From an uncultured cyanobacterium (lineage in GTDB: Bacteria > Acidobacteriota > Vicinamibacteria > Vicinamibacterales > UBA2999), in NCBI GenBank assembly GCA_963833135.1, contig CAWHWW010000021.1:96907-160906 (forward strand): 64,000 nt of DNA, in the 5' to 3' direction. Under the pieces are notes generated by a model that made no database searches, was not told the origin of the DNA, and worked only from the letters and a program-made list of their open reading frames with translations. Positions within the stretch are counted from its first letter, which is position 1; each line of letters begins with the position of its first letter. This document shows positions 9,061-46,269 of this stretch, piece by piece. A program made the translations under genes and the position numbers.

Positions 9061-11313
9061 TTGCGAAATATACCCAAACTCCGCTCGCTGCTGAAATCGA
9101 CGTCCCAAGTAGATGTGATAAGTTTCGGCGACCCCGCAGCGTCTATTGGGGCGACACCGGGAGGAAACAGCACGGAACTCATCGATGCTCGCGAACAGTT
9201 GCTGAATCGCGAACTCGCGGCCCGGACAGACGCCAGACCACAGGGACGCTCCGCCGGGGCATTGCTTCGCACGGTGGGCTACGTCCTCGCGAGCACCGTC
9301 TGCTATTACGTCGCGACGCAGATCGCCTGGACGCTGACGTTTCCCGACAGCAAAGTCTCGCTGTTTTTCCCGCCGCACGCGATTCTGCTTTGCGTGCTGC
9401 TGATCGTCCCGACCCGGCACTGGTGGGCCTACGTGCTCGCTGCCGTCAGCGCTCATTGGCTGGCAACGCAGCAGGCGGGCTGGCCGCCGCTCTACGCATT
9501 GACCTGCGAGGCGTTCGACGCTTTGAAGTGCGTCTCGGCAGCGGCGGGAATTCGCTTTCTGATCAAGTCGCCGCTCAAGGCGATCACGCTTCGTGACGCG
9601 ATTCTCTTCGTCCTCATCACAGTGGTGCTCGTTCCATTCGGGACCGCCTTCTGGGGTGCTTCCTTTACGGTCTCCTGGGGTTTCAGCACTCGCTATTGGG
9701 TCGAATGGCGCAACCTGGGAGTCTCGAATGCGGTAACGGCCGTCGTCCTGGTGCCGGCACTTCTGCTGGGTGCGCACTATCTGTTCGTCAGACGCTCGAG
9801 GCCCCTGGCCACCCGGCGCGTGCTGGAAGCGGCTCTCCTCGGGGCGTGCACGGTGGCGCTGGGAATCTTCGTATTCGATACAACGCCCGCGGGTCCCAAC
9901 ACTTCGCCGGCTCTCTTATATGCGCCGATTCCCCTGCTCATCTGGGCGGCGCTCCGCTTCGGCCTTGGTGGAATCAGCGTCTCGATGCTGATCATTACGT
10001 TCCTGGCGATCTGGGGAACGATGCGCGGGCACGGCCCGTTCCTGACTCAAACCCCCGCCGAGAATGCGCTGGCACTACAGCTATTCCTCCTGGTGACCGC
10101 CACACCGCTGATGCTGCTCGCGGTTGTCATCGAAGAGGAACGACAGTCGAAAGAAGCGCTGCGCGAGAACGCGAACCTGATGGGTCTCGCCGCGGATGCA
10201 GGAAACCTGGCGATGTGGGTATGGGATGTTTCCGGCAACGATGTGTGGATGACCGAGCAGGGGCGCTTGCTGTTTGGCCTGAAGCCGGACGCGCGCCTCG
10301 ATCTGGTGGCAATTCTCGATCGCGTGCACCCAGAGGATCGCGCCGCGCGCGAAAGCGCGATCAAACAGGCGCTCCAGACGCGAGGCGAATACGAAATGGA
10401 GTATCGCCTGCAGCAAGCAGACGGCACGGCCCGCTGGATTCAGGGTCGCGGTCGTTGTGTCGTGCCTGACGACGGCACTGGCCCGAAGCTCTTCGGCGTG
10501 TCGATGGACGTCACGGCTCGCAAACAGGCGGAGGCGACAGCCGCGCAAAGGCGGGCGGAACTCGAGCACGTCTCACGCGTGGCCACACTCGGCGAGCTCA
10601 CCGCAACCCTGACGCACGAATTGAAGCAGCCGCTCGCCGTGATCCACATGAACTCCTACGTCGGCGTGCGGTTGCTCGACGCGCCAGAGCCCGATCTCCA
10701 GCAGGTGCGCAGCACGCTGGCCGAGATCTGCGAGGTCACCGAGAACGCCGGCGAAGTCCTTGGCGGGCTGCGCGCCATGCTCAAGCGCGACAGCGCGGGC
10801 CTGGCCAATGTCGATGTGAACGGCGTGATCCGCGCCGTCGAGCGCATCGTGCACGGAGATGCGAATCAGCACCAGGTCACGGTCCACCTCGACCTGCCGC
10901 CCGACCTTCGTCCGGTCAAGGGTGACAACGTCCAGCTTCAGCAGGTCATCTTGAACCTGGTGCTCAACGCGTTCAGCGCGATGGGCGGAACGGGATTCGA
11001 CGGCGCGCGTCGTCTGGTCGTGCGCACGAGCTCGATCGATGAATCGAACGTGCTGGTCGAAGTGCAGGACAGCGGCACTGGAATCGCCGCGGAAAAGCTC
11101 GAGTCGATTTTCGATCCCTTCGTCACCAGCAAGCCGGAAGGACTGGGAATGGGCCTGTCGATCTGTCGCTCCATCATCGAACGCCACGGCGGTACGATCT
11201 CGGCCGCGAACAATCCCGACCGCGGCGCGAAGTTCTCGATCACGCTGCCGGTCAGCCGCAGTGACGGTGGCGCAGGGATGACGCTTCACCGCGCTCTGAC
11301 AGACCGCTGGTGA
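9061..11313 (+). CDS. MASE1-PAS-HisKA-HATPase sensor histidine kinase
   Basis: Intact ORF. Polytopic MASE1-like N-terminus; PAS 'VHPEDRAARESAIKQAL..RWIQGRG'; H-box 'LTHELKQPLA'; ATPase 'DSGTGI..GLGMGLSICRSIIERHGG'. Exact start codon uncertain. Confidence 0.85.
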   Translation: MRNIPKLRSLLKSTSQVDVISFGDPAASIGATPGGNSTELIDAREQLLNRELAARTDARPQGRSAGALLRTVGYVLASTVCYYVATQIAWTLTFPDSKVSLFFPPHAILLCVLLIVPTRHWWAYVLAAVSAHWLATQQAGWPPLYALTCEAFDALKCVSAAAGIRFLIKSPLKAITLRDAILFVLITVVLVPFGTAFWGASFTVSWGFSTRYWVEWRNLGVSNAVTAVVLVPALLLGAHYLFVRRSRPLATRRVLEAALLGACTVALGIFVFDTTPAGPNTSPALLYAPIPLLIWAALRFGLGGISVSMLIITFLAIWGTMRGHGPFLTQTPAENALALQLFLLVTATPLMLLAVVIEEERQSKEALRENANLMGLAADAGNLAMWVWDVSGNDVWMTEQGRLLFGLKPDARLDLVAILDRVHPEDRAARESAIKQALQTRGEYEMEYRLQQADGTARWIQGRGRCVVPDDGTGPKLFGVSMDVTARKQAEATAAQRRAELEHVSRVATLGELTATLTHELKQPLAVIHMNSYVGVRLLDAPEPDLQQVRSTLAEICEVTENAGEVLGGLRAMLKRDSAGLANVDVNGVIRAVERIVHGDANQHQVTVHLDLPPDLRPVKGDNVQLQQVILNLVLNAFSAMGGTGFDGARRLVVRTSSIDESNVLVEVQDSGTGIAAEKLESIFDPFVTSKPEGLGMGLSICRSIIERHGGTISAANNPDRGAKFSITLPVSRSDGGAGMTLHRALTDRW

Positions 11314-11434
11314 TGGCTGCGGCGGTGGTGCTCGGTCTCGGTCGGAAGGGTTGGCTACGTAGGAGGCGACTCGCTCTCATCGCGCCTGCAATGTGGACGC
11401 GGCGTCTGGAAATGACGACGTATTTCGTCTCTTC

Positions 11435-11579: not shown

Positions 11580-12023
11580 GACTTGGCGTCCACTGTGAAA
11601 CAGCTGGCTCACCAGCACCGATCCGTCCACGCAGATCAGGAATTCGATGGCGCGGAGTTGGGTCACGACGAGCTCACGGATTTCGGCGACGTGCCCGGCC
11701 TTCGTGAAGCGGTGCAGCACCCTCATGGGTGGTGACGGATTGATCGTGCGGCTCTTGAGGGGATTGACGGAAGGCATGGGTGGGATCACCGCATCGTCGC
11801 GCCGGGGATGCCGCCGGCCATCGAGAGGCCTATTCGCTGAGCCGCTGCCACCCCGATCAACGCACCGATTAATGCCCTTGCGATGAACATATCGACTCCG
11901 TTTCGGGACAGAATCGTATGTGGCCGTCGCACGCGAAAGCAAAATGAAAAAGTGACAGGTTTGCGGCCGCGACATTGCCAGATCAGCTTCGGGCTGCCGC
12001 AGGCAGGATGAAGGCGAATCGAG

Positions 12024-12098
12024 TGGTACCGCTACGGGGATTCGAACCCCGGTATCCTGACTGAGAATCAGGTGTCCTGACCCCTAGACGATAGCGGC
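12024..12098 (-). tRNA. tRNA-Glu (anticodon CUC)
   Basis: Hand-folded 75-nt cloverleaf on the minus strand: acceptor GCCGCUA/UAGCGGU, D-arm GUCUAGGGGUCAGGAC, anticodon stem CCUGA/UCAGG with loop UUCUCAG, T-arm CGGGG-UUCGAAU-CCCCG, encoded CCA. Confidence 0.9.
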
Positions 12099-12157
12099 AC
12101 TAGGGACTACGAACCGTGAATTATATCAAAGGTTCCAGAACCTGAAATAATAGCGGG

Positions 12158-12910
12158 ATGCGTTCGCTTGGATTTGTGGCTTCTACGGTGTTTCTGGCGA
12201 TTTCACTGGCATGCGGCAGTGAGGTCCCGCCGCCCGCGGCCCCGGCCGGACCGTCGGTCGATCCCGCCACCGCGGGAACTGTCACCGCTATCGTGAAGTT
12301 CGAAGGCCAGCCGCCCTCACCGGGGATGCTCACCTTGACCGGCGATCCGAAGTGCGTCAGCGAAAACGGCGGGCCCCGGCGCGCGGAAGAGCAGGTCGTG
12401 GTTGGCGAGAATCAGTCGCTGCAGAACGTCTTCGTCTACGTGAAGGATGGCCTGGGCAGTTTCGGATTTCCGATTCCGTCCGAGCCGGTCGTCCTCGATC
12501 AGGACAAGTGCCGCTACACGCCGCGCGTCCTCGGCGTGCGGGTCGGACAGGCGCTGCAGGTTCGCAACAGTGACCCGCTGCTTCACAACGTGCGATCGAA
12601 CGGCGTCATCAACCAGGCCTTCAACAAGTCGACGCCGATCGAAGGCGTGAGCTTCAATCACACGTTTGCGACCACGGAAGTCATGGTGCCCTTCAAGTGC
12701 GACGTCCATGGCTGGATGAGCGCCTACGTCGGCGTCCTCGATCATCCGTACTTCGGCACGACGGCGCCGGATGGAAAAGTTGTCCTCGGAAATCTTCCCC
12801 CTGGTACCTACGCCATCGAAGCCTGGCACGAAGCGCTCGGCACCCGGACCCAACAAGTGACAATTGCAGCGAAAGAATCCAAGGATGTCACCTTCTCGTT
12901 CGCACGCTGA
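12158..12910 (+). CDS. secreted cupredoxin-like copper-binding protein with carboxypeptidase-regulatory-like C-terminal domain
   Basis: Intact ORF. Signal peptide ending 'AISLAC'. Type-1-copper-like ligand pattern 'LLHNV ... FKCDVHGWM'. Lies directly upstream of the haem O synthase gene. Confidence 0.65.
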   Translation: MRSLGFVASTVFLAISLACGSEVPPPAAPAGPSVDPATAGTVTAIVKFEGQPPSPGMLTLTGDPKCVSENGGPRRAEEQVVVGENQSLQNVFVYVKDGLGSFGFPIPSEPVVLDQDKCRYTPRVLGVRVGQALQVRNSDPLLHNVRSNGVINQAFNKSTPIEGVSFNHTFATTEVMVPFKCDVHGWMSAYVGVLDHPYFGTTAPDGKVVLGNLPPGTYAIEAWHEALGTRTQQVTIAAKESKDVTFSFAR

Positions 12911-13799
12911 CGCCACTCCGGCCGTGACCGCGCGATCGTATTCGCGCGGTGGCGACTTCGTCACGCTGATGAAGCCGCGCCTCAACTTCCTCGTCCTGTT
13001 GACGACCGCGGCGGCGTATTCGCTGGGGGCCGGGCCCAATTCCACGCTCATCGATCTGGTACACACGCTGCTCGGCACGTTCCTCGTCGCCGGCGGCGCG
13101 GCCGCGCTCAACCAGGTGTGGGAGCGGCAGACGGATCGGCTGATGCGCCGCACCCGGACGCGCCCGCTGGCCGACATGCGCATGACGGCGGCGCAGGGCG
13201 CGATCTTCGGGCTCCTGCTGACAATGGCCGGCGCCGCTGAGCTCGCCTACTTCATCAATCCGCTCTCGGCGATCGTCGCGCTGCTGACGACGGCGAGTTA
13301 CCTTCTTTTCTACACGCCGCTGAAGCTGCGCACGTCGCTCTCGACGATCGCCGGCGCGTTGCCGGGTGCGCTGCCGGCGGTGATCGGTTGGGCGGCCGCC
13401 ACCAACACGCTGTCGCTCGAGGGCTGGGTGCTCTTCGGCATCGTCTTCATGTGGCAGATGCCGCACTTCCTTGCGATCGCGTGGATATATCGCGATGAGT
13501 ATGCGGGGGCCGGGATGCCGCTGCTGCCGGTGATCGAGCCGGATGGGCGATCGACCGGTCGCCAGGCCGTCCTCTACACGGCGGCCTTGATTCCGCTGAG
13601 CATGATGCCGACCGGGATCGGACTGGCCACGGCGCGATACCTCGTTGGCGCGATCGCGCTGGGCGCGGTGCTGATGTTTCTGAGCGTCGAGTTCTCCGCG
13701 AAGCGCGACCTGCCCACTGCCCGCCGGCTGTTCTTCGGGTCGATCGTGTATCTCCCGATCCTCTGGGCGCTGCTCGTGTTCGACCATCGCGCGCGATGA
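12864..13799 (+). CDS. ctaB: protohaem IX farnesyltransferase (haem O synthase)
   Basis: Intact ORF; UbiA-family motifs 'ALNQVWERQTDRLMRRTRTRPL' and 'MWQMPHFLAIAWIYRDEY'. The true start may be the internal ATG at 12885. Confidence 0.9.
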   Translation: MQRKNPRMSPSRSHADATPAVTARSYSRGGDFVTLMKPRLNFLVLLTTAAAYSLGAGPNSTLIDLVHTLLGTFLVAGGAAALNQVWERQTDRLMRRTRTRPLADMRMTAAQGAIFGLLLTMAGAAELAYFINPLSAIVALLTTASYLLFYTPLKLRTSLSTIAGALPGALPAVIGWAAATNTLSLEGWVLFGIVFMWQMPHFLAIAWIYRDEYAGAGMPLLPVIEPDGRSTGRQAVLYTAALIPLSMMPTGIGLATARYLVGAIALGAVLMFLSVEFSAKRDLPTARRLFFGSIVYLPILWALLVFDHRAR

Positions 13800-14211: not shown

Positions 14212-14262
14212 GGGCTTACGGGCTTACGGGCTACGGGCTTGCGGGCTACGGGCTTGCGGGGG
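14212..14262. repeat. word-repeat array (GGGCTTACG / GGGCTACG / GGGCTTGCG)
   Basis: Six contiguous variant 8-9-mers fill the gap between the convergent stops at 14209 and 14265. The complementary words occur at 30060-30096. Confidence 0.9.
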
Positions 14263-17722: not shown

Positions 17723-17798
17723 TAGCCAGATGCCAGTAGCCGGTAGCCAGAAAGACAAGAGCTCTTCTGGCTACTGGCTACTGGCTTCTGGCTACTGG
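17722..17798. repeat. word-repeat palindrome (GCCAGTAGC words); putative bidirectional terminator hairpin
   Basis: Left arm 17722-17752 and right arm 17765-17798 are complementary. Together they fill the whole gap between the convergent stops at 17722 and 17799. Confidence 0.85.
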
Positions 17799-20069
17799 TT
17801 ACTTCCGTTTTTCCGCCTCCGCAATGAGCTGATTGATGTTCGGGTAAGAAGGCTCGATCGATCGGGCCTTCTTCCACATCTCCAGCGCCTCGGGAAACTT
17901 TCCTTCCCTCGCCAGCAGCACGCCCTTCACGACCCACGGAAACGCGTAATTCGGCTCGACGGCGGTCGCCTTGTTCAAGGCATCGCGCGCGACGACGGTG
18001 TTGCCGCGCTCGGCTTCGAGCCAGCCCTTGGCGGCGTGATTCGAGGCCGCGTCCGGGAACATGTCGAGACTGACGATGTACTCGTCCTGCGCCTTCTTCA
18101 GCACCTCGCCTGCCTGTCCAGGCAATTCGACGATGCCGAAACTCACGAGCACCTCGGCTGCCTTGACGCGCACGACGCGGGCTTCGTCGCCGAGTCGCGC
18201 CACGATGGGCATGAGCGATCGTTCCCTGTCGCCGATCGATCCGAGAGACGCGATCGCGGAGGCGCGGACCGCGGGCTCGGGGTCAGACGCGGCGCCAATG
18301 AGAGCGTTCACGATGGCCGGGGTCACTTCTGGGGCCGTTCGACGGACGTTCTCCGATCGTTCTACGGTCGTTCTACGATCGTCGGTTCCAGGCGCAGTCG
18401 GCCGTAGAACGTTCGTAGAACCTGTCGTAGAACCATCGTCGAACGACGTCTGTGTTGGCGAACTGGCGCTCGTCGTGCCGCCAGAGCGCCATTCAGAAAC
18501 CAGCCGTCCAATGTAGTCAGCGGCGCTCGCGCGAACCAGGAAGCCCTGCGATCGATCGACCGCCAGCTTCGCCAGCGCCGGGCAGCGTCGTCGCATCGCC
18601 CGAACCGGCGCGATACATGGTGTCGGCGAGCGACACCGCCTGCGCGCGGCGTTCGCCGTCGCCCCACCACGCCGTCATCTGCTTCGCCGCCCACTCGGGC
18701 GTTCGATCGTCGTGACAGGTCGTGCACGCGTTCGGGATACCGAACTGCGCGGTGTTCTCCGGCACCGGCGGCTGGAACGTGTGATCGCGACGGCGAATCA
18801 GCAGCCGCCAGTTCACGTCGCTCATGTGGCAGCCGATGCAGCGCGATCCGGCAGAGTCGGGGGCATGAAACGTGTGGGCTTCCAAGCCGGCGCCAGTAAA
18901 CGACGGCTTGAGGTTCGCCGGGTTCCCGGTTCCCGGTTCCCGGCACGTCGGCGCCGAGTGGCATTGCGTGCAGAGCCCGTCGCCGTTGCGGCCCTGGTTG
19001 ATGTTCACCTTCAGCGAGAACTCGTTGCGCGATCCGTGAGCGACGTGGCAGTTCGTGCATGCGATCGCGCCGGCCTTGAAGCAGCCGCTGAGCGTCAACG
19101 CCTGCGGGCGGTTGAAGCGATTCGGGCGGCCGTCGGGCCAGAATTCGCCCTGCAGATCGTTCTCGGGAAGCGGATCGCTGATGAGGAACGGCGTCGCGTA
19201 ATCAGAATAGTGATCGCCGCCCTTGAAGCCGACGAAAACGTTGCGCTTGTTGCCGTGGCAGTAGGCGCAGGTGTCGTAGATCCGCCGCGGCTGCGAGCTC
19301 TTCACCGACAAGATCTTGAGGATGTCGCTCAGCTGGCGGTTCTTCGAGCTGTTGTCGTACTTCGGCTTCGATGCCGGATCCTTCTCCCACGCGTCCATCA
19401 ACGCAACATGCTGGCGGCCAGGCCCATGACACGCTTCGCAGCCGATGCCCATCTCGCGTCCACGTCGACTTGTACTTTCTCTCGGCGACGTCGTAGCCCT
19501 GGACGAGGTTGGTGCCGTGGCAGTTGAAACAGTTGGAATTCCAGATCTGACGGAACTGGTGCGCGCCTTCCGGTACCGACGTGATCTCCTTCCAGTCGAT
19601 CCAGCGCTTCGTGCCGACATGCCAGAACACCGGCAGCACGTAGATTCGTCCGTCGGGCAGCGTCGACAGATAGCCCTGATATCGCTTGGCACCGAGCGTG
19701 TAGTCGACGGTGAAGGTTTCCGGCGCGCGATCGCCGAAGGCAATCGACAACGGACGGCTTGCCGTCCTTCGTGCCGAACGTGTACGCGCGATCGTGATCG
19801 GCGAACTTCGTCCCTTCGCGGAAGTCACCAATCACGGTGGCTTCCGCGATCGGCTTGGTCATCTTGATGTGCAGCGAGTTCTTCCACTGCGTGTGCTCGA
19901 CGTCGTGACACTTCGCGCAGGCGGCGGATCCCAGATACTCGCTGTTAACCTGCGTGGGAAGGTCTTGGGGCTTGGGACTTGGGGCTTGGGACTGCTCGTT
20001 GGCGCGGACGGCCAGCGTCAGCAGCAAGAGCAAGAGCGCCGCGCTTACCAGGCTCGCACCGCGGGTCAT
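17799..20069 (-). CDS. octahaem c-type cytochrome fused to HEAT/TPR repeats (frameshifted as sequenced)
   Basis: Colinear pieces are ORFs 19398..20132, 19202..19831, 18517..19743 and 17799..18596. Eight CxxCH motifs: CAKCH, CFNCH, CEACH, CAYCH, CTNCH, CTQCH, CIGCH, CTTCH. Best start is the ATG at 20069 ('MTRGASLVSAALLLLLLTLAVRA'). Confidence 0.8.
18336..18448. repeat. word-repeat palindrome (CGTTCTACG words) inside a coding region
   Basis: Arms 18336-18385 and 18399-18448 are imperfectly complementary. The element is read in frame as the linker 'SSPTQTSFDDGSTTGSTNVLRPTAPGTDDRRTTVERSENVRR' of ORF 17799..18596. Confidence 0.85.
19961..19990. repeat. 30-nt word element (GGGGCTTGG type), right partner of an inverted pair
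   Basis: 'ggtcttggggcttgggacttggggcttggg'. Encodes 'SQAPSPKPQDLP' just after the cytochrome signal peptide. Confidence 0.9.
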
Positions 20070-22051: not shown

Positions 22052-22084
22052 AGAATATCTCGATCGAACACCAGACCAGAACTA

Positions 22085-22149
22085 GCACCTGGCACCTGGC
22101 ACCGGCACCCCTGCACCCTTGCACCCCTGCACCCCTGCACCCCTGCACC
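22085..22149. repeat. word-repeat array (GGCACCT then CTGCACCC words)
   Basis: 'gcacctggcacctggcaccggcacccctgcacccttgcacccctgcacccctgcacccctgcacc'. Confidence 0.9.
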
Positions 22150-22188
22150 AAAAAAGGGAGAGAGATCGGCGCGGTTGATCTCTCTCCC
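22149..22188 (-). terminator. rho-independent terminator (minus strand)
   Basis: Minus strand reads GGGAGAGAGATC-AACCGCGCC-GATCTCTCTCCC followed by TTTTTTGG (12-bp perfect stem). Confidence 0.8.
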
Positions 22189-27582: not shown

Positions 27583-27948
27583 TCAAGCGTTCCAGGGTTC
27601 CAGGAGTTCCAGAAGTTCCACGGTTTGGTCCAGGAGTTCCAGACGTTCCAGATGTTCCACGGGTGGTTCAGAACACGGTACCTGACAGAACTCAACCCTT
27701 GGAACCCCTGGAACCACTGGAACCCTGGAACGATCTTTATCGGCGAGCTGCATGACCCGATAGACATTGAGGACACCGGCGGCAAGTCCGAGAAAAAACC
27801 CGACGAACGCGAGCCAGGGCTTCGTGCCGAGCGCCCCGTCCAGCCAATAACCCGCGGCAAAGCCGATCACCAGCGCAAACACGAACGACAAGCCGATCGT
27901 GCTGAGCTGCCCGATGAGCTGCAACGTCGTCGGGGATGTCCGCTCCAT
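27583..27948 (-). CDS. AtpZ/AtpI-family protein (3' end uncertain; the ORF tail runs through a repeat)
   Basis: 'LQLIGQLSTIGLSFVFALVIGFAAGYWLDGALGTKPWLAFVGFFLGLAAGVLNVYR'. The last ~50 codons are translation of the 27589-27731 word palindrome. Confidence 0.6.
   Translation of the reverse strand: MERTSPTTLQLIGQLSTIGLSFVFALVIGFAAGYWLDGALGTKPWLAFVGFFLGLAAGVLNVYRVMQLADKDRSRVPVVPGVPRVEFCQVPCSEPPVEHLERLELLDQTVELLELLEPWNA
27589..27731. repeat. word-repeat palindrome (GTTCCAGG words)
   Basis: The left arm (27589-27662) has 8 variant GTTCCAG/GTTCCAC words. The right arm (27697-27731) has complementary CTGGAAC words. Confidence 0.9.
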
Positions 27949-29935: not shown

Positions 29936-30096
29936 GGTCTTACGGGCTACGGGCTACGGGCTTGCGGAAGACAGGGTCTTGCGGGCTTGCACGGGCTTGC
30001 GGAAGACAGGGTCTTTGCGGGCTTGCGGGCGACGGGCTGCGGCAAATTCGTAGTGCGTGCCTCAAGCCCGTAGCCCGTTAGCCCGTTAGACCCGTG
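29936..30096. repeat. word-repeat palindrome (ACGGGCT / CTTGCGGGC words) containing a 35-nt tandem duplication
   Basis: Forward words at 29936-30045 include a direct repeat, 29956-29990 and 29991-30026. Complementary words 'aagcccgtagcccgttagcccgttagacccgt' lie at 30060-30096. Confidence 0.9.
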
Positions 30097-30108
30097 TAGT
30101 ATTCCCCC

Positions 30109-31248: not shown

Positions 31249-31339
31249 GGTGCGTACGGTGCGTACGTGCGTACGGTGCGTACCGTGCGTAGAGTGCCGC
31301 GCGCTTAGGCACATCACGCACAGTACGCACGGTACGCAC
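31249..31339. repeat. word-repeat palindrome (GTGCGTAC words)
   Basis: Left arm 31249-31298 and right arm 31306-31339 surround the loop 'gcgcgc'. The element abuts the ATG at 31341. Confidence 0.9.
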
Positions 31340-31340
31340 T

Positions 31341-33056
31341 ATGGAGCGTGCCTCCGTGGCCTGTTCGTGGCGATGCTTGCGATCTTTGCGGCTGCGTGTC
31401 AGAACGACGCCGCCGAGGGTGACGGCTCCGTCCTACGACGTGGTGATCACGAACGCGCAGATCGTCGACGGTAGCGGCGGGGCGCCGCGCACAGGATCGA
31501 TCGCGATCGCCGGCGGCAAGATCGCCGCGGTCGGCGAAGTCACCGGCTCCGGCGCGCGCACCATCGATGCCAAGGGCCGCACCGTTGCGCCGGGCTTCAT
31601 CGACCTGCACAGCCACTCCGACATGCCCCTCGTCACCGACGGCAACGGGCAGAGCAAGATCAGGCAGGGCGTGACCACGGAAGTGATCGGCGAGTCGGGA
31701 TCGATCGCACCGCGGAAGGCGGCGTCGGAAACGCAGCCCTGGACGGATTTCGACGGCTACTTCGCGGCACTGCAGAAGAACGGCATCTCGCCGAATCTGC
31801 TGTCGTACATCGGCACCGGCACCGTGCGGGAGATCGTCATCGGCGACGACGACAAGAAAGCTACCGCCAAGGACATTGCCGGCATGCAACAGATCGTGTC
31901 GTCGATGATGGGCCAGGGAGTCTTTGGCATCTCGTCAGGCTTGATCTATCCGCCTAACGCGTTCGCGACGGTCGCAGAGCTCGGTGAAGTCGCGAAGGCC
32001 GCTAAGGGCGGGTTGTACGCGTCGCACCTGCGCTACGACGGACTGAAGCTTCGCGACGGCATCGAGGAAGCGATCGCGATCGGCGAGCGCGGCGGCATAC
32101 CGGTCCACATCTTCCACATCAAGGTTACCGGGCAGAAAAATTTCGGCCGCATGAAGGAAGTGATCGAGATCGTCGAGGCGGCGAGGGCGCGCGGCATTCG
32201 TGTCACCGCCGATCAGTATCCCTACGTCGCCAGCAGCACCAGCCTGACCGCGACCATTCCGCCGTGGGCCCAGGACGGCGGCAACGCCAGGTTGATCGAG
32301 CGCCTGAAGAACAAGCCGGAGCGGGCCCGCATCCGCAAGGAGATGGAAAACACCAATCCGGCGTGGGAGAGCCGCTATCAGTCGGCCGGCACGTGGCAGA
32401 ACGTGCAGCTCGCCGCGATCGGGCGGACCCGCGGCGGCACCAACGACCGGGTGTCGCCGAACCGCAAGTACGAAGGGATGCGCGTTGCGGAGGCGGCGAA
32501 ACAGGCCGGCAAGGACCCGTTCGACTTCGTCTTCGATCTGCTGATCGAGGAGCGCGCGTCGGTGGGCTGCGTCTACTTCATCATCGATGAAGCGGACCTT
32601 GCGCTGGCGATGAAGCAGCCGTGGGTGGCCGTCGGCTCGGATGGATCGTCACTCGCGGTCGAGGGTCCGCTTCGCGCCGGCGTGCCCCACCCCCGCAACT
32701 TCGGCACGTTTCCGCGTGTGCTCGGCCGCTACGTGCGCGAGCTGAAAGTGATTCCACTCGAAGAGGCGATCCGCAAGATGACGTCGCTGCCGGCCAGCAT
32801 CCTCGGGCTGGCCGATCGCGGCGCGATCAAGGAAGGCCAGTGGGCTGATCTGGTGATCTTCGATCCGGCGACCGTGGCCGACAAGGCGACCTTCGAGGAT
32901 CCGTTTCAGTATCCGGTGGGAATCGACACCGTGCTCGTGAACGGCACGGTGGTGTTGGACGAAGGCAAGCACACCAACGCGCGCCCAGGGAAAGTGCTGA
33001 AGCGGCGCGCGGCACTTAGCACGCGCTTACGTGCGTACAGTGCGTACGTGCAGTGA
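31341..33056 (+). CDS. D-aminoacylase (N-acyl-D-amino-acid deacylase, amidohydrolase superfamily)
   Basis: Track ORF: 'YDVVITNAQIVDGSG..APGFIDLHSHSD'. A signal-peptide-like 'GLFVAMLAIFAAAC' lies in another frame at 31360-31410, so the N-terminus is uncertain. The last ~13 codons are repeat-encoded. Confidence 0.85.
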   Translation: MERASVACSWRCLRSLRLRVRTTPPRVTAPSYDVVITNAQIVDGSGGAPRTGSIAIAGGKIAAVGEVTGSGARTIDAKGRTVAPGFIDLHSHSDMPLVTDGNGQSKIRQGVTTEVIGESGSIAPRKAASETQPWTDFDGYFAALQKNGISPNLLSYIGTGTVREIVIGDDDKKATAKDIAGMQQIVSSMMGQGVFGISSGLIYPPNAFATVAELGEVAKAAKGGLYASHLRYDGLKLRDGIEEAIAIGERGGIPVHIFHIKVTGQKNFGRMKEVIEIVEAARARGIRVTADQYPYVASSTSLTATIPPWAQDGGNARLIERLKNKPERARIRKEMENTNPAWESRYQSAGTWQNVQLAAIGRTRGGTNDRVSPNRKYEGMRVAEAAKQAGKDPFDFVFDLLIEERASVGCVYFIIDEADLALAMKQPWVAVGSDGSSLAVEGPLRAGVPHPRNFGTFPRVLGRYVRELKVIPLEEAIRKMTSLPASILGLADRGAIKEGQWADLVIFDPATVADKATFEDPFQYPVGIDTVLVNGTVVLDEGKHTNARPGKVLKRRAALSTRLRAYSAYVQ

Positions 33057-33122
33057 GGACACGTGCCTTCGTGCCTGGAGTGCACCGTACGCGCATTACG
33101 CACTGTACGCACCGTACGCACT
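33026..33122. repeat. word-repeat palindrome (GTGCGTAC words), second locus
   Basis: Left arm 33026-33053 and right arm 33080-33122. It spans the gap between the stop at 33056 and the rseP stop at 33123. Confidence 0.9.
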
Positions 33123-34464
33123 TTATCGCCACGGCATCAAATTCTCGATCCACGTGATGCGCGTGAGGTCGTTGTAGATGACGGTCACCATCAGCGTCAT
33201 CAACAACACGAATCCGACAAACAGCATCTTTTCCTTCACCTGAAGGCTGAAGTCGCGGCGCGAGATCGTCTCGATGGCCATGATGAAGATATGGCCGCCG
33301 TCGAGCACGGGAATCGGCATCAGGTTCAACAATCCGAGGTTCAGGCTGATCGACGCCATCAGTCCGAGCAAGACGATCCAGCCGGCCTGCGCCGACTCAC
33401 CCGAGACCTGCGCGATGCCGATGGGCCCCATCAGCTGCTTCGGCGATGCTTCACCGGTCATCAGATCCTTCAGCGTGTTGAGGATCATCCCGGACATCTC
33501 GATGTTGCGCTCCACGCTCATGCCGATCGCCTCGATCGGCGTCGGCTTGTACGAGCGCGTCACCTCTTTCATGTACATGCCGACCTTCGCCGCGTCGCCT
33601 TCCATGTAAGGCGTCACCGGAATCGTCAGCTCAGTGCCGTCGCGGCGCACGCGGAACTCGATCGGCTTGTCGCCGGCCTTCTTCGAAATCGCCTCGATGA
33701 CCTGAAGTCGAAACACCATACGCTCGCCATCGACGGCAAGAATCAAGTCGTCTGGCTGCAGTCCGGATGACTCCGCCGGCTTGCCGGGAACAAACGACGC
33801 CACGGCCGGATAGACGTCCGGCAGGACGCCAATCGTGCCGATTTCGAAGCGCGCGTTGTTGCGCGTCTTGAGCTCGGTCAGATCGGGGCGCACCTTGAGG
33901 TGCTCTTCGCCGCCGCTGCGAATGATCGTGACGTCGACTTCGCGCTCCGGCCGCGCCGGCCACCGCCATCTCGAGGTGTTCCCACGTGCGCACTTCGGCG
34001 CTGCCGAACTGGGTGATTTGATCACCCGGCCGGAGGCCGGCTTGCTCCGCCGGTGAGCCCGGCTGCACCAGGCCGACCACGGCCGGCTGATCGAGATACG
34101 CGAGCACCTCGGCGCCGCGCATCAGTACGGCCGCCAGCAGGACGACGGCGAGGATGATGTTCATCGCCGGTCCCGCGATCAGGATCTGGAAGCGCTGCCA
34201 CTTCGACTTCGCCAGAAATTCGTCGTCGGCGCCGGTGTGGGGATCGTCGGGGTTTTCGCCGGCCATCTTCACGTAGCCGCCGAGCGGCACGGCGCTGATG
34301 CAGTATTCGGTGTCGCCCCGCCGCACCTTGAAGAGCTTCGGGCCGAAGCCAAGCGAGAATGTGATGACGCGGACGCCGTTCCATCGCGCGAGCAGGAAAT
34401 GGCCGAGCTCGTGGATGAAGACAAGAACGCCGAGTACAAAGAGAAACGAAAGCAGCGTGGTCAC
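33123..34464 (-). CDS. rseP: RIP site-2 metalloprotease RseP (M50; frameshifted once)
   Basis: GTG at 34464 overlaps the dxr stop (GTGA). 'FIHELGHFLLAR' (HExxH) lies in the frame of ORF 33631..35478; the PDZ domain and 'NLMPIPVLDGGH' lie in ORF 33123..34025. Confidence 0.9.
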
Positions 34465-35632
34465 TGTCTTGATTCTAACTCTTGAGCCAGCTCGGCCGCT
34501 TGCATCCTGGCCCAGGCGTCGACGCGGCGGACATCCGACAGGGTCACAGGCGGGCTCAGGCTCATGGGCATCCATCGTCTGCGCAATCACTTGCGGGATG
34601 TGCGTGAATCCAAGCCGGCCTTCCAGAAAAGACGACACCGCGACCTCGTTGGCCGCGTTCAACACGATCGGCAGGCTCCGCTCCGCTTCGAGGGCGCGGT
34701 AGGCCAGGCGCAGGCACGGAAAATCGTCCCACGCCGGCTCGTGAAACTCGAGGGCTTTCTGCTTCGTGAGATCGAGAAACGGCACCGGCGCGTCCCAGCG
34801 ATCGGGATACGCGAAGGCGTATTGAATCGGCAGGCGCATGTCGGTGATGCCCATCTGCGCGATGATCGATCCGTCCTTCAACTCGACCATCGAGTGCACG
34901 ATCGACTGCGGGTGAACAACGACGTCGATCTGCGAGGCGGGCACGCCAAACAGCCAATGCGCCTCGATCACCTCCAGCCCCTTGTTCATCAGTGTGGCCG
35001 AATCGATGGTGATCTTCGGGCCCATCTGCCAGGTCGGATGCTTCAACGCGTCGGCGGCGGTGACCCTGGCCAGCTCGCTCAGCGACCTGCCGCGAAACGG
35101 GCCGCCGGAGGCAGTGAGAATCAGCCGCCGCAGTTCCCCGCTGGCGCGGCCGTGCAGGCACTGATGGATCGCGTTGTGCTCGCTGTCGACCGGTAGCACC
35201 GCGACGCCTTTCTTGCGCGCGGCATCCATGACGAGGCCGCCCGCCATGACGAGCACTTCCTTGTTCGCGAGGGCGATGGTCTTGCCCGCATCGATCGCGC
35301 ACAGCACCGCGTCGAGCGCTGCCGTTCCTGACGACGCGCACAAGACGATGTCGACGTCGGGGTGCGAAGCGATCTCGCACAGGCCCTCGTTGCCGACACC
35401 GGAGATCTTCGCCCGGCGATCCACCGAGCGCGGCGCGCAGCTTGTCCATCGCCTCGCCGGTGGCCATCGCCACCGCACGCGGCCGGAACTCGAGGATCTG
35501 CTTCACCATCGCCGCGACGTTGGTCGCCGCGGCGATCGCGACGACCTCGACGCGATCGCGATGCGTCCGCGCCACATCGAGCGCGCTCGTACCGATCGAG
35601 CCCGTCGAGCCGAGAATGGCGATGCGCTTCAT
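34461..35632 (-). CDS. dxr: 1-deoxy-D-xylulose-5-phosphate reductoisomerase (frameshifted)
   Basis: 'MKRIAILGSTGSIGTSALDV' (ORF 34562..35647), then '..LANKEVLVMAG..DSEHNAIHQCL..HPTWQMGPKITIDSATLMNKGLEVIEAH' (ORF 33631..35478). The tail '..DAWARMQAAELAQELESRQ*' was read by hand. Confidence 0.9.
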
Positions 35633-35640
35633 GTCCAGAA

Positions 35641-35886
35641 GATCCACAGATTACACGGATTACACCGATGCGCAGTCGACCCGTCCGCCGGGCTTCGCCC
35701 GGCAACGGACAGGTCATGCGGTGGCGGATGAAAGACCACTGCAGCGATACGGCAGAACTCAGCTGTCTTTCATCCGCCGCCGCATGGCCTGTCCACGCCG
35801 ACCGAAGGTCGGCGCGGGTCGACTTGCAGCTCTGTACGCGCATCGCGTTCGTCGAATCCGTGTAATCCGTGTAATCCGTGGATGAC
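35641..35886. mobile_element. MITE-like structured element, copy 1 (TIRs ATCCACRGATTACACGGATTACAC; ~185-nt multi-hairpin core)
   Basis: The left end (35641-35667) matches the reverse complement of the right end (35853-35886) at ~27/30. In the core, 'tgcggtggcggatgaaagac' pairs with 'gtctttcatccgccgccgca', and there are local hairpins ccggg-cttcg-cccgg and cgccgacc-gaa-ggtcggcg. It fills the whole cdsA-dxr gap. Confidence 0.55.
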
Positions 35887-36668
35887 TAAACGTTGCGCAA
35901 GAAGAAGTAGAAGACAGGCGCGGCGAAGAGGAGCGCGTCGATGCGATCGAGGACGCCGCCGTGACCGGGAATTAGCGTGCCGCTGTCCTTCATGTCCGCA
36001 GCGCGCTTCAGCATCGACTCGAACAGGTCGCCGATGATGCCGGCGACGACGATGCCGAGCCCGAGGCTGGCGTGCCAATACCACGGGAAATCAGGCAGCC
36101 AGTAAGACCCGGCAAGCGCGAGGAAGAGCGGCGCGATGACGAATCCGCCGAGCGCACCTTCGCGCGTCTTCTTCGGGCTGCGTAGCGGCGCCAGCGGCGT
36201 GCGCCCCAGCGTGCGGCCGGTGTAGTACTGCGCCGTGTCGCTGACCGCGACCGTCGCAATCAGCAGCAACACGCCTTCCCTGCCGACAATCGCGTGGACG
36301 CCGACCAGGCAGCCGAGAGGGACGCCGATGTAGACCGGCGCCAGCACCGCCGCTGCCGTGTCCGCGAGGAGCGGCGTGCCGACGCGGGTCGACGCAAGAA
36401 CATTCAGCGCGATCAGAAGCAGCGCCGCGGCCAGCACCGATTCGAGATCGACCCACTGGAACGGCACCATCGAACAGACGAGCAGCGTCGCCAGCAGCGT
36501 CGTCCAATACGGGATCTTCGCGCCGATCCGATCGACGATGCGATCGTATTCGTGGAAGGCCATCGCCGCAACGACGAGCGCGACGCCAAGCAACGCAATC
36601 GAGCTGAGGAACCAGATCAGCGCGAACGCGCCGGCGGCGATGACGACGCCGCTAATCACTCGGGTCAT
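35886..36668 (-). CDS. cdsA: phosphatidate cytidylyltransferase
   Basis: Intact ORF: '..SPKKTREGALGG..GDLFESMLKRAADMKDSGTLIPGHGGVLDRIDALLF'. Confidence 0.9.
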   Translation of the reverse strand: MTRVISGVVIAAGAFALIWFLSSIALLGVALVVAAMAFHEYDRIVDRIGAKIPYWTTLLATLLVCSMVPFQWVDLESVLAAALLLIALNVLASTRVGTPLLADTAAAVLAPVYIGVPLGCLVGVHAIVGREGVLLLIATVAVSDTAQYYTGRTLGRTPLAPLRSPKKTREGALGGFVIAPLFLALAGSYWLPDFPWYWHASLGLGIVVAGIIGDLFESMLKRAADMKDSGTLIPGHGGVLDRIDALLFAAPVFYFFLRNV

Positions 36669-44364: not shown

Positions 44365-45393
44365 CCGTTCTCGGCCTGCGGGCGCGCGGCCATCGCGCCG
44401 TGCTCGTCGCGCATCGCGAAGGCGAATTGTTCCGGCGCGCCTCCGAGGGGCCGGACCTGGTGCCGCTCGCCCCGATGAACGAGATCGATCTCGCCGCCGC
44501 GTGGAAGCTCTCGAAGATCATCAAGCAGTCGAAGCCGGCCATCGTTCACGCGCACGACCCGCACGCCGTGTCGATGGCGGCGCTGGCGCTGTCGTTCAGC
44601 GCGCCCGACCCGCGGCCGAAACTGATCGCGTCGCGACGCGTCGACTTCCATCTGCAGTCGCATGCCTTCTCGCAGTGGAAGCACCGGCAGATGGACGGGT
44701 TCATCGCCGCCTCGCACGCGATCAAGGACATCCTCGTGTCCGACGGCATCCCGGCCGCGCGCATCGAGGTCGTGCATGACGGCATCGATGTGGAAAAGAT
44801 CCGGCATCGGCCGGTGATCGACCTGCACACGGAATACTGGCTGCCCCACGGCGTGCCGGTCATCGTGAATGTCGGCGCGCTGGTCGGCCATAAGGGCCAG
44901 AAGTACTTGATCGATGCGATGCCGCTGGTGCTGCGCGAGGTGCCCGACGCGCACTTGATCATCTTCGGTGAAGGCGAACTGCGCGCGCCGCTCGAGAAGC
45001 AGGTCAAGCAGCTGTCGCTCGCCAAGCGCGTGCTGCTGCCGGGGTTTCGGGAAGATGTGATGTCGCTGATGAAGTCCGCGGATCTGTTCGTGATGAGCTC
45101 GGTGACCGAGGGCCTCGGATCCGCCGTGCTCGACGCGATGGCGATGGGCCACGCGGTGGTCGGCACGACGGCGGGCGGCATTCCTGAGGCGGTCGTCCAC
45201 GAGGAAACGGGGGTGCTGGTCGAGCCCGCGGATGCGAAGGCGCTCGCCGCCGCGATCGTGCGGTTGCTCAAGGACGGCGAGCTGCGGAAACAGTTCGGCG
45301 AGGCCGGCCGCGCGCGGGTCGACCGAGCACTTCGGCGTCGATCGACTGGTTGAGGGAACGCTCGAGGCTTATCGGAAGATCGCCTCGCGCTGA
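44301..45393 (+). CDS. family 4 (GT-B) glycosyltransferase (frameshifted near 45320)
   Basis: GTG at 44301, in the frame of ORF 43734..45353 ('MFALHIDTARTWRGGQQQVL..SSVTEGLGSAVLDAMAMGHAVVGTTAGGIPE'). The tail '..EHFGVDRLVEGTLEAYRKIASR*', read by hand, ends at 45393. Confidence 0.8.
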
Positions 45394-45399
45394 TCTTCT

Positions 45400-45600
45400 T
45401 CATCCACGGATTTCACGGATTTCACGGATAACGGCGCGGACGGTTGCTCGCGCGTCGCTCGCGACGCGTCAGCAACGAATACGGAAACGAGTCGTGTCTG
45501 GTGCGGACTCGTTCCGCGACTCGCTGCTGACGTGCGGCCGGCCGAAGGCCGGCCAGCGAGCAACCGGTGAATCCGTGAATCGGTGTAATCCGTGGATGAC
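45400..45600. mobile_element. MITE-like structured element, copy 2 (TIRs TCATCCACGGATT..; ~130-nt multi-hairpin core)
   Basis: The left end 'tcatccacggatttcacggatttcacgg' matches the reverse complement of the right end 'tcatccacggattacaccgattcacgg'. The core has an outer stem ggttgctcgc/gcgagcaacc and hairpins cggaaacgagtc..gactcgttccg and ggccggcc-gaa-ggccggcc. Confidence 0.55.
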
Positions 45601-45604
45601 TCGA

Positions 45605-46269
45605 TCAGGCGGGCCGCTGCGTCGCCAGCCAGTCGGCGAAGTCCGCGTGGCCCTTCTCGCGCGCGAGATCGATCGCGCTTCTTGCCGTCGTCGTTCGGCA
45701 GCGACGGATCAGCGCCATGCGCGATGCAGCAACTCGGCGAGCGCGCGATTCGCTTTCGTCGCCGGCTTCATGAATCGGCCCGGAAGCCTGCCTGCTGCTG
45801 CGCGTTCGGATCGGCGCCCGCTTCGAGCACAGCTTTCACGATTTCGAGTTTTCCGCCGGCGACGGCGGCGTGCAGCGCCGCGACCTTCAGCGCGTTCTTT
45901 GCGGCAGCGTTCACATCGGCGCCAGCCGCGATCAACGCCTTGACGGCGGCGGGCTGACCGAAGAATGCCGCGAGGGCGACGGGCGTGAATCCGTCGGGCG
46001 CGTGCTCAGAGACACGCGCGGGGCTGCTCTTCAGGATCTCCTCGATGCGATCGACCTTGCCGAGCACGCTGGCTTCGAAGATGTCGACCGGCGCGCCGAG
46101 CTCGACGAGCGCGTTCACCACATCCGGCTTCATGTTGTAGGCGGCCGACGAGGATCGCCGAGGCGCCGCTCGCATCGCGCGCCTGTTTCAGCGACGGGTT
46201 CTGTTGAACCAGCTGTCTGACCTCCTCGACACGGCCGGCTTTGATCGCATCGAATAGCTGCTGTTCCAT
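45605..46269 (-). CDS. ankyrin-repeat protein (frameshifted)
   Basis: ORF 46006..46269 ('MEQQLFDAIKAGRVEEVRQLV') joins ORF 45768..46175 ('GFTPVALAAFFGQPAAVKALIAAGADVNA..ALHAAVAGGKLEIVKAVLEAGADPN'). The hand-read tail is '..WLATQRPA*'. Confidence 0.8.

Follow-up and report, generated by a model that had tools for sequence, protein, structure and literature searches.

The TAACTGA heptamer forms tandem, intergenic repeats of unexplained function in Beggiatoaceae, Cyanobacteria and Bacteroidetes, often immediately before start codons without a Shine-Dalgarno sequence, and no mechanism of transfer among these three phyla is known (PMC4679880). A passage of the same paper mentions long simple-sequence repeats, with units of 5–11 nucleotides (nt), in some bacterial genomes (PMC4679880, citing Mrazek 2007). 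We analyzed 64,000 nt of contig CAWHWW010000021.1 (positions 96,907 to 160,906; hereafter the window), from an uncultured bacterium of the Vicinamibacterales (Acidobacteriota), in which the gap between the genes cdsA and dxr is filled by a non-coding palindromic element. This element is a member of a previously undescribed repeat family that is defined by its arms. As a rule, a family of small palindromic repeats is confined to one lineage and depends on a single transposase. In this case the CACGGAT heptamer, the arm design and the polarity recur from Acidobacteriota to Bacteroides and a tailed phage. At a probability of roughly 0.55, we favor the reading that the element is a non-coding, foldback or REPIN-like palindromic repeat from a new, cross-phylum family with heptamer arms, CACGGAT in this case, around variable cargo.

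The cdsA–dxr gap is 246 bases long and the element occupies 242 nt of it (window positions 35642–35883). Its left arm (35642–35672, 31 nt) starts with a 3-nt stem extension, ATC, and continues with three heptamers at a 9-nt period (CACAGAT at 35645, CACGGAT at 35654 and CACCGAT at 35663). The right arm (35853–35883) is the inverted repeat of the left, with ATCCGTG at 35856, 35865 and 35874 followed by GAT. A preliminary description of this DNA had reported inverted repeats that match at 27 of 30 positions and are composed of a 10-nt word. The inverted repeats stand, with the match corrected to 28 of 31 (90%), but the period from start to start is 9 nt, a CACGGAT heptamer plus two variable bases. 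The arm word is found eight times in the window against 0.17 expected.

The core between the arms (35674–35824) consists of an outer stem, two small hairpins and a long stem. The outer stem (AGTCGACCCG/CGGGTCGACT, 35674–35683 with 35815–35824) pairs at 10 of 10 positions. It encloses a first small hairpin with a CTTCG loop (GCCGGGC-TTC-GCCCGGC, 35686–35704), a long stem of 35 nt that is 89% paired around an 18-nt loop (35707–35741 with 35760–35794), and a second small hairpin with a CGAAG loop (GCCGACC-GAA-GGTCGGC, 35796–35814). The inverted-repeat arms, outer stem, long stem and two looped hairpins that the preliminary description placed at 35641–35886 are thus all present. An asymmetric segment (35825–35852) leads from the outer stem to the right arm, and its GCGCATCG pairs with CGATGCGC at 35666–35673. 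The core has pseudo-twofold symmetry: on either strand the first hairpin carries a CTTCG loop and the last a CGAAG loop. The predicted folding energy is about −165 kcal/mol on either strand (z = −14 relative to 200 dinucleotide shuffles).

To find further members we scanned one genome per species with the 16-mer CACGGATTWCACGGAT, which yielded at least 120 loci. By our own arithmetic, a few hundred chance matches to this word are expected in 596 Gb. However, a third unit is in register in 82 of the 120 loci listed, and in most of the listed loci the left flank is rich in T and ends in RAC, AGC or AGG, from which we conclude that the family matches are not chance. Inverted pairs were found at 55 of the listed loci, span 56–352 nt (most commonly 65–80 nt) and cover at least 10 phyla. 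The carriers include Verrucomicrobiota, Bacteroidota, Ignavibacteria, Acidobacteriota, Chloroflexota, Planctomycetota, Poribacteria and Kiritimatiellota, as well as Leptospirales, Thermodesulfobacteriota, delta-proteobacterial metagenome-assembled genomes (MAGs), Azospirillum and a Nealsonbacteria MAG. The element is therefore part of a dispersed, multi-copy family and not one of only two copies. In Bacteroides finegoldii the copies are found where nothing is annotated, in intergenic DNA that separates convergent or co-directional genes.

Three or four CACGGAT heptamers make up an arm, with a spacing of 9–10 nt or about one helical turn, and the arms enclose a variable cargo. In arms without the search word the heptamer is conserved and the 2–3-nt spacers vary freely. 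The perfect stem extends 2–3 bp past the units by a lineage-specific sequence (AC/GT, AAC/GTT, GC/GC or GGA/TCC; ATC/GAT in the window). Neighboring arrays follow each other in plus-then-minus order in 93 cases and in minus-then-plus order in 15, the latter mostly at junctions of adjacent elements. The polarity is thus fixed as 5'-(CACGGATnn)n ... (nnATCCGTG)n-3' on either strand. The distance between arms ranges from 3 to more than 300 bp across the family, and the cargo from a 3-nt loop to multi-hairpin cores, as in an Opitutaceae copy (L035) with three internal hairpins. Whole elements also occur head to tail, with six at a period of about 130 nt in locus L021 (1013–1768) and three at 159 nt in L053 (3853–4294). 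The single heptamer is not enriched outside elements, and a BLAST search of plasmids with the whole element gave no match.

In a viral collection, about half of the matches listed are true arrays. One tailed-phage contig carries at least seven near-identical copies, core included, in separate junctions of its tail-gene row. Each phage copy is located between a stop codon and the Shine-Dalgarno sequence of the next gene, and some have an extra inner hairpin that shows compensatory differences. The phage contig that is rich in CACGGAT hairpins (L220) also encodes an apparent diversity-generating retroelement, with a reverse transcriptase at 11844–13064 beside a protein of Lcl_C/C-type-lectin fold at 10439–11344.

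The position of the window element among its neighbors is tight. Both genes are on the minus strand: cdsA (phosphatidate cytidylyltransferase) at 35886–36668 and dxr at 34464–35632, with uppS upstream and rseP downstream of the pair. These identities were confirmed with Pfam and with tblastn searches using orthologues, and the location inside the uppS–cdsA–dxr–rseP row agrees with the preliminary description, as does the start of the element 9 nt from the dxr ATG (35630–35632). The element does not end on the cdsA stop codon, as had been claimed, but 2 nt short of it (TAG, 35886–35888). Judging from the gene order, it would be co-transcribed within the row. There is no open reading frame (ORF) inside the element, as had been stated, and the overlapping ORFs in the list are dxr or cdsA read out of frame in high-GC DNA.

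Frame changes were seen in several window genes, namely dxr (twice, so that it reads in three frames), rseP, uppS and a GT4 glycosyltransferase gene (at about 35408, 34553, 33957, 36978 and near 45353). These genes are still 90–99% identical to intact orthologues, and the changes are probably indel errors of the assembly rather than marks of pseudogenes. Single-base spacing in the window copies should not be over-read, given these frameshifts relative to intact orthologues.

Homologues of CdsA place the window within Acidobacteriota, near MAGs that bear the name Vicinamibacterales. To evaluate how the junction varies, we extracted the gap between the cdsA stop and the dxr start from 84 related Vicinamibacterales-like loci. 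The junction is empty (1–9 nt or overlapping codons, for example TAATTGatg or TGACACatg) in about 20 of the 84, from which we conclude that the ancestral junction was tight, without a Shine-Dalgarno sequence and probably translationally coupled. Fifteen loci carry a CACGGAT-armed element, either 248–286 nt long or in shorter forms of 162–180 nt without the long stem, and among the junction elements the arms drift from CACGGAT to CACAGAT to CGCAGAT. An unrelated hairpin of about 150 nt with GGTTCCA/TGGAAC arms occupies the junction in at least nine loci (this arm type includes L124, L129–L131, L136, L143 and L148), and a GGGCNGGT-armed hairpin does so in four. In L123, L147 and L158 only a remnant of the right arm is left, immediately before the dxr start. 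A CdsA tree shows these states interleaved: the empty L132 and L133 are sister to the filled L134 and L141, and the GGTTCCA-type L129–L131 are sister to the window and L121. Thus, the junction has repeatedly been occupied, emptied or re-occupied by CACGGAT-armed and differently armed hairpins.

The window contains a second copy (45402–45597) between the convergent stops of the GT4 glycosyltransferase gene (TGA, 45391–45393) and an ankyrin gene (TCA, 45605–45607). Its arms (45402–45429 and 45570–45597) enclose an outer stem (45441–45451 with 45556–45566), a hairpin (45452–45467), a long stem (45467–45493 with 45506–45532) and a GAA-loop hairpin (45535–45553), so that the two copies have arms and part order in common. 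The preliminary description had announced a second copy at 45400–45600, which is correct with regard to the arms and the hairpin architecture, but the cores are barely alignable (z of 1.8 to 3.5), the marginal similarity being driven by the GAA hairpin. Orthologous elements with compensatory changes are found in L125, L140 and L181, and in L121 the site is empty and both genes abut. Both window copies are missing from the equivalent site in some related genomes, and the empty orthologous sites on which the preliminary description had left the question therefore exist for each.

At the site of the second copy, L123 (1014–1126) instead has a 44-nt unit that is repeated about 2.5 times in tandem and forms a GCTAAG...CTTAGC hairpin. 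Small hairpins of both window copies (35687–35703 on the minus strand, and 45537–45553) have a C-GAA-G loop as in GCGAAGC, which is known as an unusually stable DNA mini-hairpin and would fit folding as single-stranded DNA.

We aligned 13 orthologous junction copies and derived a consensus with RNAalifold, which contains the arms and the outer stem, the two small hairpins and, of the long stem, the inner 12 bp. Standard pairs make up 95.7% of the cells, relative to 87.7% in shuffled and 29–40% in slid alignments, and double-sided changes are seen in 22 of 65 pairs, relative to 11.5 shuffled and 4–8 slid. The core structure is thus conserved with compensatory changes among the 13 orthologues. 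Between relatives whose CdsA proteins are about 90% identical, the long stem is almost wholly rewritten yet still paired. However, in 25 elements with three types of arm neither strand folds better than the other, and the 15 CACGGAT-armed elements have a total of 69 G-U pairs on the sense and 69 on the antisense strand. Based on this strand symmetry and on the pseudo-twofold core, we interpret the covariation as a sign that a DNA palindrome is maintained, which does not prove a functional RNA. The lesson is that covariation in an intergenic hairpin, however strong, is no evidence for an RNA function if the two strands fold equally well. Two details do lean toward the sense strand. Among the orthologues, GCCGGGCGAAGCCCGGC forms a hairpin that hardly varies and is always on that strand, its exact form being confined to copies of the CACGGAT-armed element at the cdsA–dxr junction, and a single G-U pair of the outermost unit persists in 8 of 13 copies.

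Hallmarks of transposition were sought at the copies themselves. No target-site duplication is present in 85 of 92 distinct elements, the remainder match the shuffled-flank control, and neither window copy has one. The copy in L134 is surrounded by a 5-nt TTTGA repeat, which is within chance. A search of about 2.5 Mb of loci (ORF clustering in 124 loci; all arm pairs 0.4–3.6 kb apart) brought up neither an autonomous partner nor a transposase. Large plus/minus arm pairs enclose ordinary genes, such as those for MurB, PlsX or a glycosidase, and no ORF family is enriched near copies.

One candidate agent was considered and rejected. Five relatives have a syntenic, single-copy gene about 10 kb upstream of cdsA that encodes a Y1_Tnp (HUH) protein of about 285–310 amino acids with a C-terminal helix-turn-helix (L121, 1–334, beside the ankyrin gene; L125, 1–327; L162, 709–1233; L165, 821–1345; L172, 659–1183). 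The hairpins on its flanks are of the GGGGTCAGACCCC type, with AATCATCC tails, and are not CACGGAT arrays; the gene looks like a domesticated RAYT with its own REP. No homologue was found in the window or near other CACGGAT copies. The helix-turn-helix has generic Pfam matches only and none to DnaA_C, and given this and the different flanking hairpins the idea that a DnaA-like domain reads the 9-mers was dropped.

Other tandem arrays are common in this DNA. The window is rich in arrays of 7–9-nt units of a dozen other types, often as inverted pairs. Two left GTTCCAG arrays face CTGGAAC units at 27594–27726, the arm type that relatives have in the cdsA–dxr gap. A GTGCGTAC hairpin of 9-nt units, four or five per side with a short loop, is located at 31250–31345 (its arrays at 31265–31342), with a solitary half-array 1.8 kb away (33094–33125), and a hairpin of the same type lies between convergent genes in L121 (13550–13650). 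There is a GCCAGTA array at 17730–17803 and an ACGGGCT array at 29937–30100, and further intergenic arrays of 7–8-nt units at 14212, 16669, 18916, 19961, 21042, 22079–22152, 26654, 27980 and 41080. The units of all these intergenic arrays from 14212 to 41080 include ACGGGCT, CCCAAG/CTTGGG, GCCAGTA, GGTTCCC, GTGGAAC, GCACCYN and CAGAACCT. Several of the arrays are arranged as inverted pairs, and several are runs of G with the potential for quadruplexes. Many short intergenic regions of L121, L123 and L124, for which gene calls are present, carry such arrays, as do loci of other phyla. Small orthologous hairpins of 8-nt units (L122, 6926–6994; L124, 15100–15172; L134, 11194–11295; L180, 4864–4950) have CACGGAA in two relatives and CACGGAG in two, with six units changed together and unrelated loops, which indicates either concerted change or replacement.

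We regard the element as probably selfish or neutral, and not as a regulator of dxr. In the mechanism that we propose, a sequence-specific factor acting in trans would read the arms and spread or maintain the element without target duplication; that the reading is sequence-specific is suggested by the conservation of the heptamers but not of the spacers. The agent may be an HUH-type or recombinase-type enzyme that works on folded single-stranded DNA, or alternatively the element may be copied by template switching. What keeps the palindrome perfect would be correction at the DNA level, with one arm as template for the other, and not selection for one RNA. The predicted fold of the element in the cdsA–dxr transcript is a closed four-way junction. 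The stop and start codons, 256 nt apart in sequence, would then be separated by about 11 nt at the foot of a 30-bp stem, and no unstructured RNA would be left for Rho loading. Such a closed junction, by bridging stop and start and shielding the transcript from Rho, could explain why an insertion is tolerated in a junction that in relatives spans 1–9 nt and is probably coupled. The perfect duplex of 27–30 bp would also be a plausible RNase III substrate.

Several observations weigh against this account. No target-site duplication attests a transposition event, the search brought up no mobilizing enzyme, and none of the copies in the loci examined has its own gene inside it. The two window copies share almost no core sequence, unlike young copies of a miniature inverted-repeat transposable element (MITE), and the indel errors of the assembly make the exact unit spacing in the second copy uncertain. 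Filled and empty sites could also be explained by deletion of an unstable palindrome together with shuffling of alleles by homologous recombination. Finally, a dedicated factor for each of the dozen other unit types in the same genome is hard to credit, and this diversity leans toward a generic, possibly mutational, mechanism.

Such a mechanism would generate the elements in place, by slippage of a 7–9-nt repeat, template-switch inversion and quasipalindrome correction, with the dispersed copies as independent births. It would suit the wealth of 7–9-nt arrays, solitary and inverted and of a dozen or more units, in the window, its relatives and other phyla, the strand-symmetric conservation, the lack of target duplication and transposase, and the units that differ in concert (CACGGAA relative to CACGGAG) at one orthologous site. 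Long simple-sequence repeats with 5–11-nt units, known in some bacteria, provide a precedent (a passage of PMC4679880, citing Mrazek 2007). What it leaves unexplained is the recurrence of the heptamer, the polarity and the three-unit arm in at least 10 phyla and in phages while the spacers vary, which counts against slippage because slippage would copy the spacers too. The window copies moreover share a four-part core architecture at unrelated sites, and the near-identical phage copies at seven or more different junctions, core included, point to copying of whole elements and not to independent births. We consider an in-place origin unlikely.

We attach a similarly low weight to the view that the hosts select the element as an RNA signal, be it operon punctuation, an RNase III site, a stabilizer of mRNA 3' ends or a device that couples cdsA and dxr translation, comparable to the intergenic RNase III sites of phage T7 or the Correia elements of Neisseria. 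The location within an operon and flush with stop and start codons, the conserved fold with its 27–30-bp perfect duplex, the phage copies between stop codon and next Shine-Dalgarno sequence in the tail-gene row, the sense-strand constancy of GCCGGGCGAAGCCCGGC and of one G-U pair (8 of 13), and the right-arm-only arrays that persist just upstream of the dxr start in L123, L147 and L158 are all consistent with it. Yet many close relatives do without the element (gaps of 1–9 nt), unrelated hairpins substitute for it at the same site, the second copy lies between convergent genes, the cargo is highly variable across the family, and there is no overall strand asymmetry in stability or G-U content. 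A regulator specific to dxr (riboswitch, attenuator or terminator) that tunes isoprenoid precursor synthesis is suggested by the strong fold immediately upstream of dxr, but we regard it as very improbable, given its absence from many close relatives, the second copy at unrelated genes, the arms in phage tail-gene rows, the strand-symmetric fold, and the lack of an Rfam match or of a terminator-like or promoter-like site. Between these lies the idea, to us quite improbable, that the arms are site arrays for a chromosomal DNA-binding protein with a role in the nucleoid, replication or partition. The heptamers are conserved, with free 2–3-nt spacers at a 9–10-bp period, so that each turn of the helix would expose one of them on the same face of the duplex, and their head-to-head orientation is fixed. 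TTATCCGTG and TTAACCACG loosely resemble the DnaA box, TTATCCACA, and TTTCACG loosely resembles a parS half-site, but these resemblances extend to only 6–7 of 9 positions. The inter-arm distance of 3 to more than 300 bp, the lack of enrichment of the single heptamer outside elements and the many other unit types in the same genome also speak against it.

More tentatively, the CACGGAT-armed hairpins may constitute a new class of bacterial and phage elements, whose heptamer arrays would be read by a widely conserved or horizontally mobile, perhaps phage-borne, candidate factor. The hairpin would be copied or inserted into the few bases that separate genes, without target duplication, or would serve as a shared signal for mRNA punctuation or processing, and GGTTCCA, GTGCGTA, GGGCNGGT and other arm types would define sister families. 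We think this broader proposal doubtful. If it is true, one tandem-unit foldback system shapes intergenic DNA in Acidobacteriota, Verrucomicrobiota, Bacteroidota, Chloroflexota and phages. Recurrence across phyla with neither target duplication nor an enzyme in sight points to an undescribed mechanism of spreading or maintenance. How an essential, translationally coupled operon can tolerate an insertion of 250 nt would be a further lesson of this case. The finding holds and is more general than the preliminary description saw, which missed that the element is one of many kinds of tandem-unit hairpin in its genome and that arms of the same heptamer occur across phyla.

With regard to known systems, a literal search of the literature for the arm sequence returned nothing, and searches for bacterial foldback-type repeats gave only eukaryotic work. 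At the gathering threshold of Rfam, the window has a single tRNA match only and 18 other loci have tRNA or TPP matches only, and no Rfam family matches the element. An E-value search with the element gave, as best sub-threshold matches, chance hits to miRNA models, and no promoter-like or terminator-like site was found at the element. The term MITE-like, used in the preliminary description, is apt in that the element is non-coding, shorter than about 500 bp and bounded by terminal inverted repeats, and that its family has multiple copies with filled and empty sites among relatives. It is not apt in that target-site duplications do not exceed the control and no linked transposase was found in the loci analyzed, and we rejected strict MITE membership on the lack of target-site duplication.

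Like REPINs, the elements are short, non-coding, intergenic and multi-copy, with two inverted repeats around a spacer. REPINs, which are mobilized in trans by RAYT, a Y1/HUH transposase, also make no target-site duplication, which we count as a likeness. They differ in that a REP is a single imperfect palindrome of 20–40 nt with a GTAG or CGTC head, whereas here we find arrays of CACGGAT heptamers that start C-CACGG, and in that REPIN families are lineage-specific whereas the CACGGAT heptamer crosses phyla. Membership among REPINs was rejected on the repeat form and on the different flanks of the RAYT gene. The Correia or NEMIS elements of Neisseria are MITEs that likewise are small, have inverted repeats, lie in transcription units where they form a long mRNA hairpin, and show filled and empty sites. 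The Correia hairpin is cut by RNase III, as are phage intergenic hairpins. In contrast to them, the present elements lack target-site duplications, the loci analyzed yielded no related insertion sequence, the arms are internally repetitive and the cores of different copies are unrelated in sequence.

Foldback or Galileo-type transposons also have terminal inverted repeats made of short tandem subrepeats around a variable middle, but these are eukaryotic and kilobase-scale, with a known transposase (P or MULE superfamily) and target duplications, and the analogy is one of form only. The attC sites of integrons share the imperfect palindrome, the conserved 7-nt boxes, the variable center and the folding as single-stranded DNA that we propose here, and the flanks ..TTAAC and GTTAA.. 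in several phyla are like R'' and R' boxes (RYYYAAC and GTTRRRY). However, there are three boxes per arm here and two in attC, the window flanks are ATC and GAT, the flanks vary among lineages (ATC/GAT, GC/GC, GGA/TCC, AAC/GTT), and neither an integrase nor arrays of ORFs with sites were seen. Partial likenesses to CsrA, TwoAYGGAY, DnaA-box, parS, ECF −35 and attC motifs each fit part of the unit and none explains both arms; we treat them as leads only.

The remaining comparison is with the TAACTGA repeats, the cyanobacterial STRR and the long simple-sequence repeats, which also are tandem 7-nt words in intergenic DNA. Each arm of the window element is such a head-to-tail repeat of a 5–11-nt unit, with three units at a 9-nt period. 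It is not the product expected of slippage, identical units in direct arrays only, as the spacers differ and inverted pairs prevail (93 to 15). TAACTGA and STRR arrays are direct and have exact units, whereas here we find inverted pairs of fixed polarity with variable spacers and an enclosed cargo, that is, a discrete element. The CACGGAT family would thus extend the cross-phylum TAACTGA heptamer repeats, as an inverted, cargo-bearing version of the same theme.

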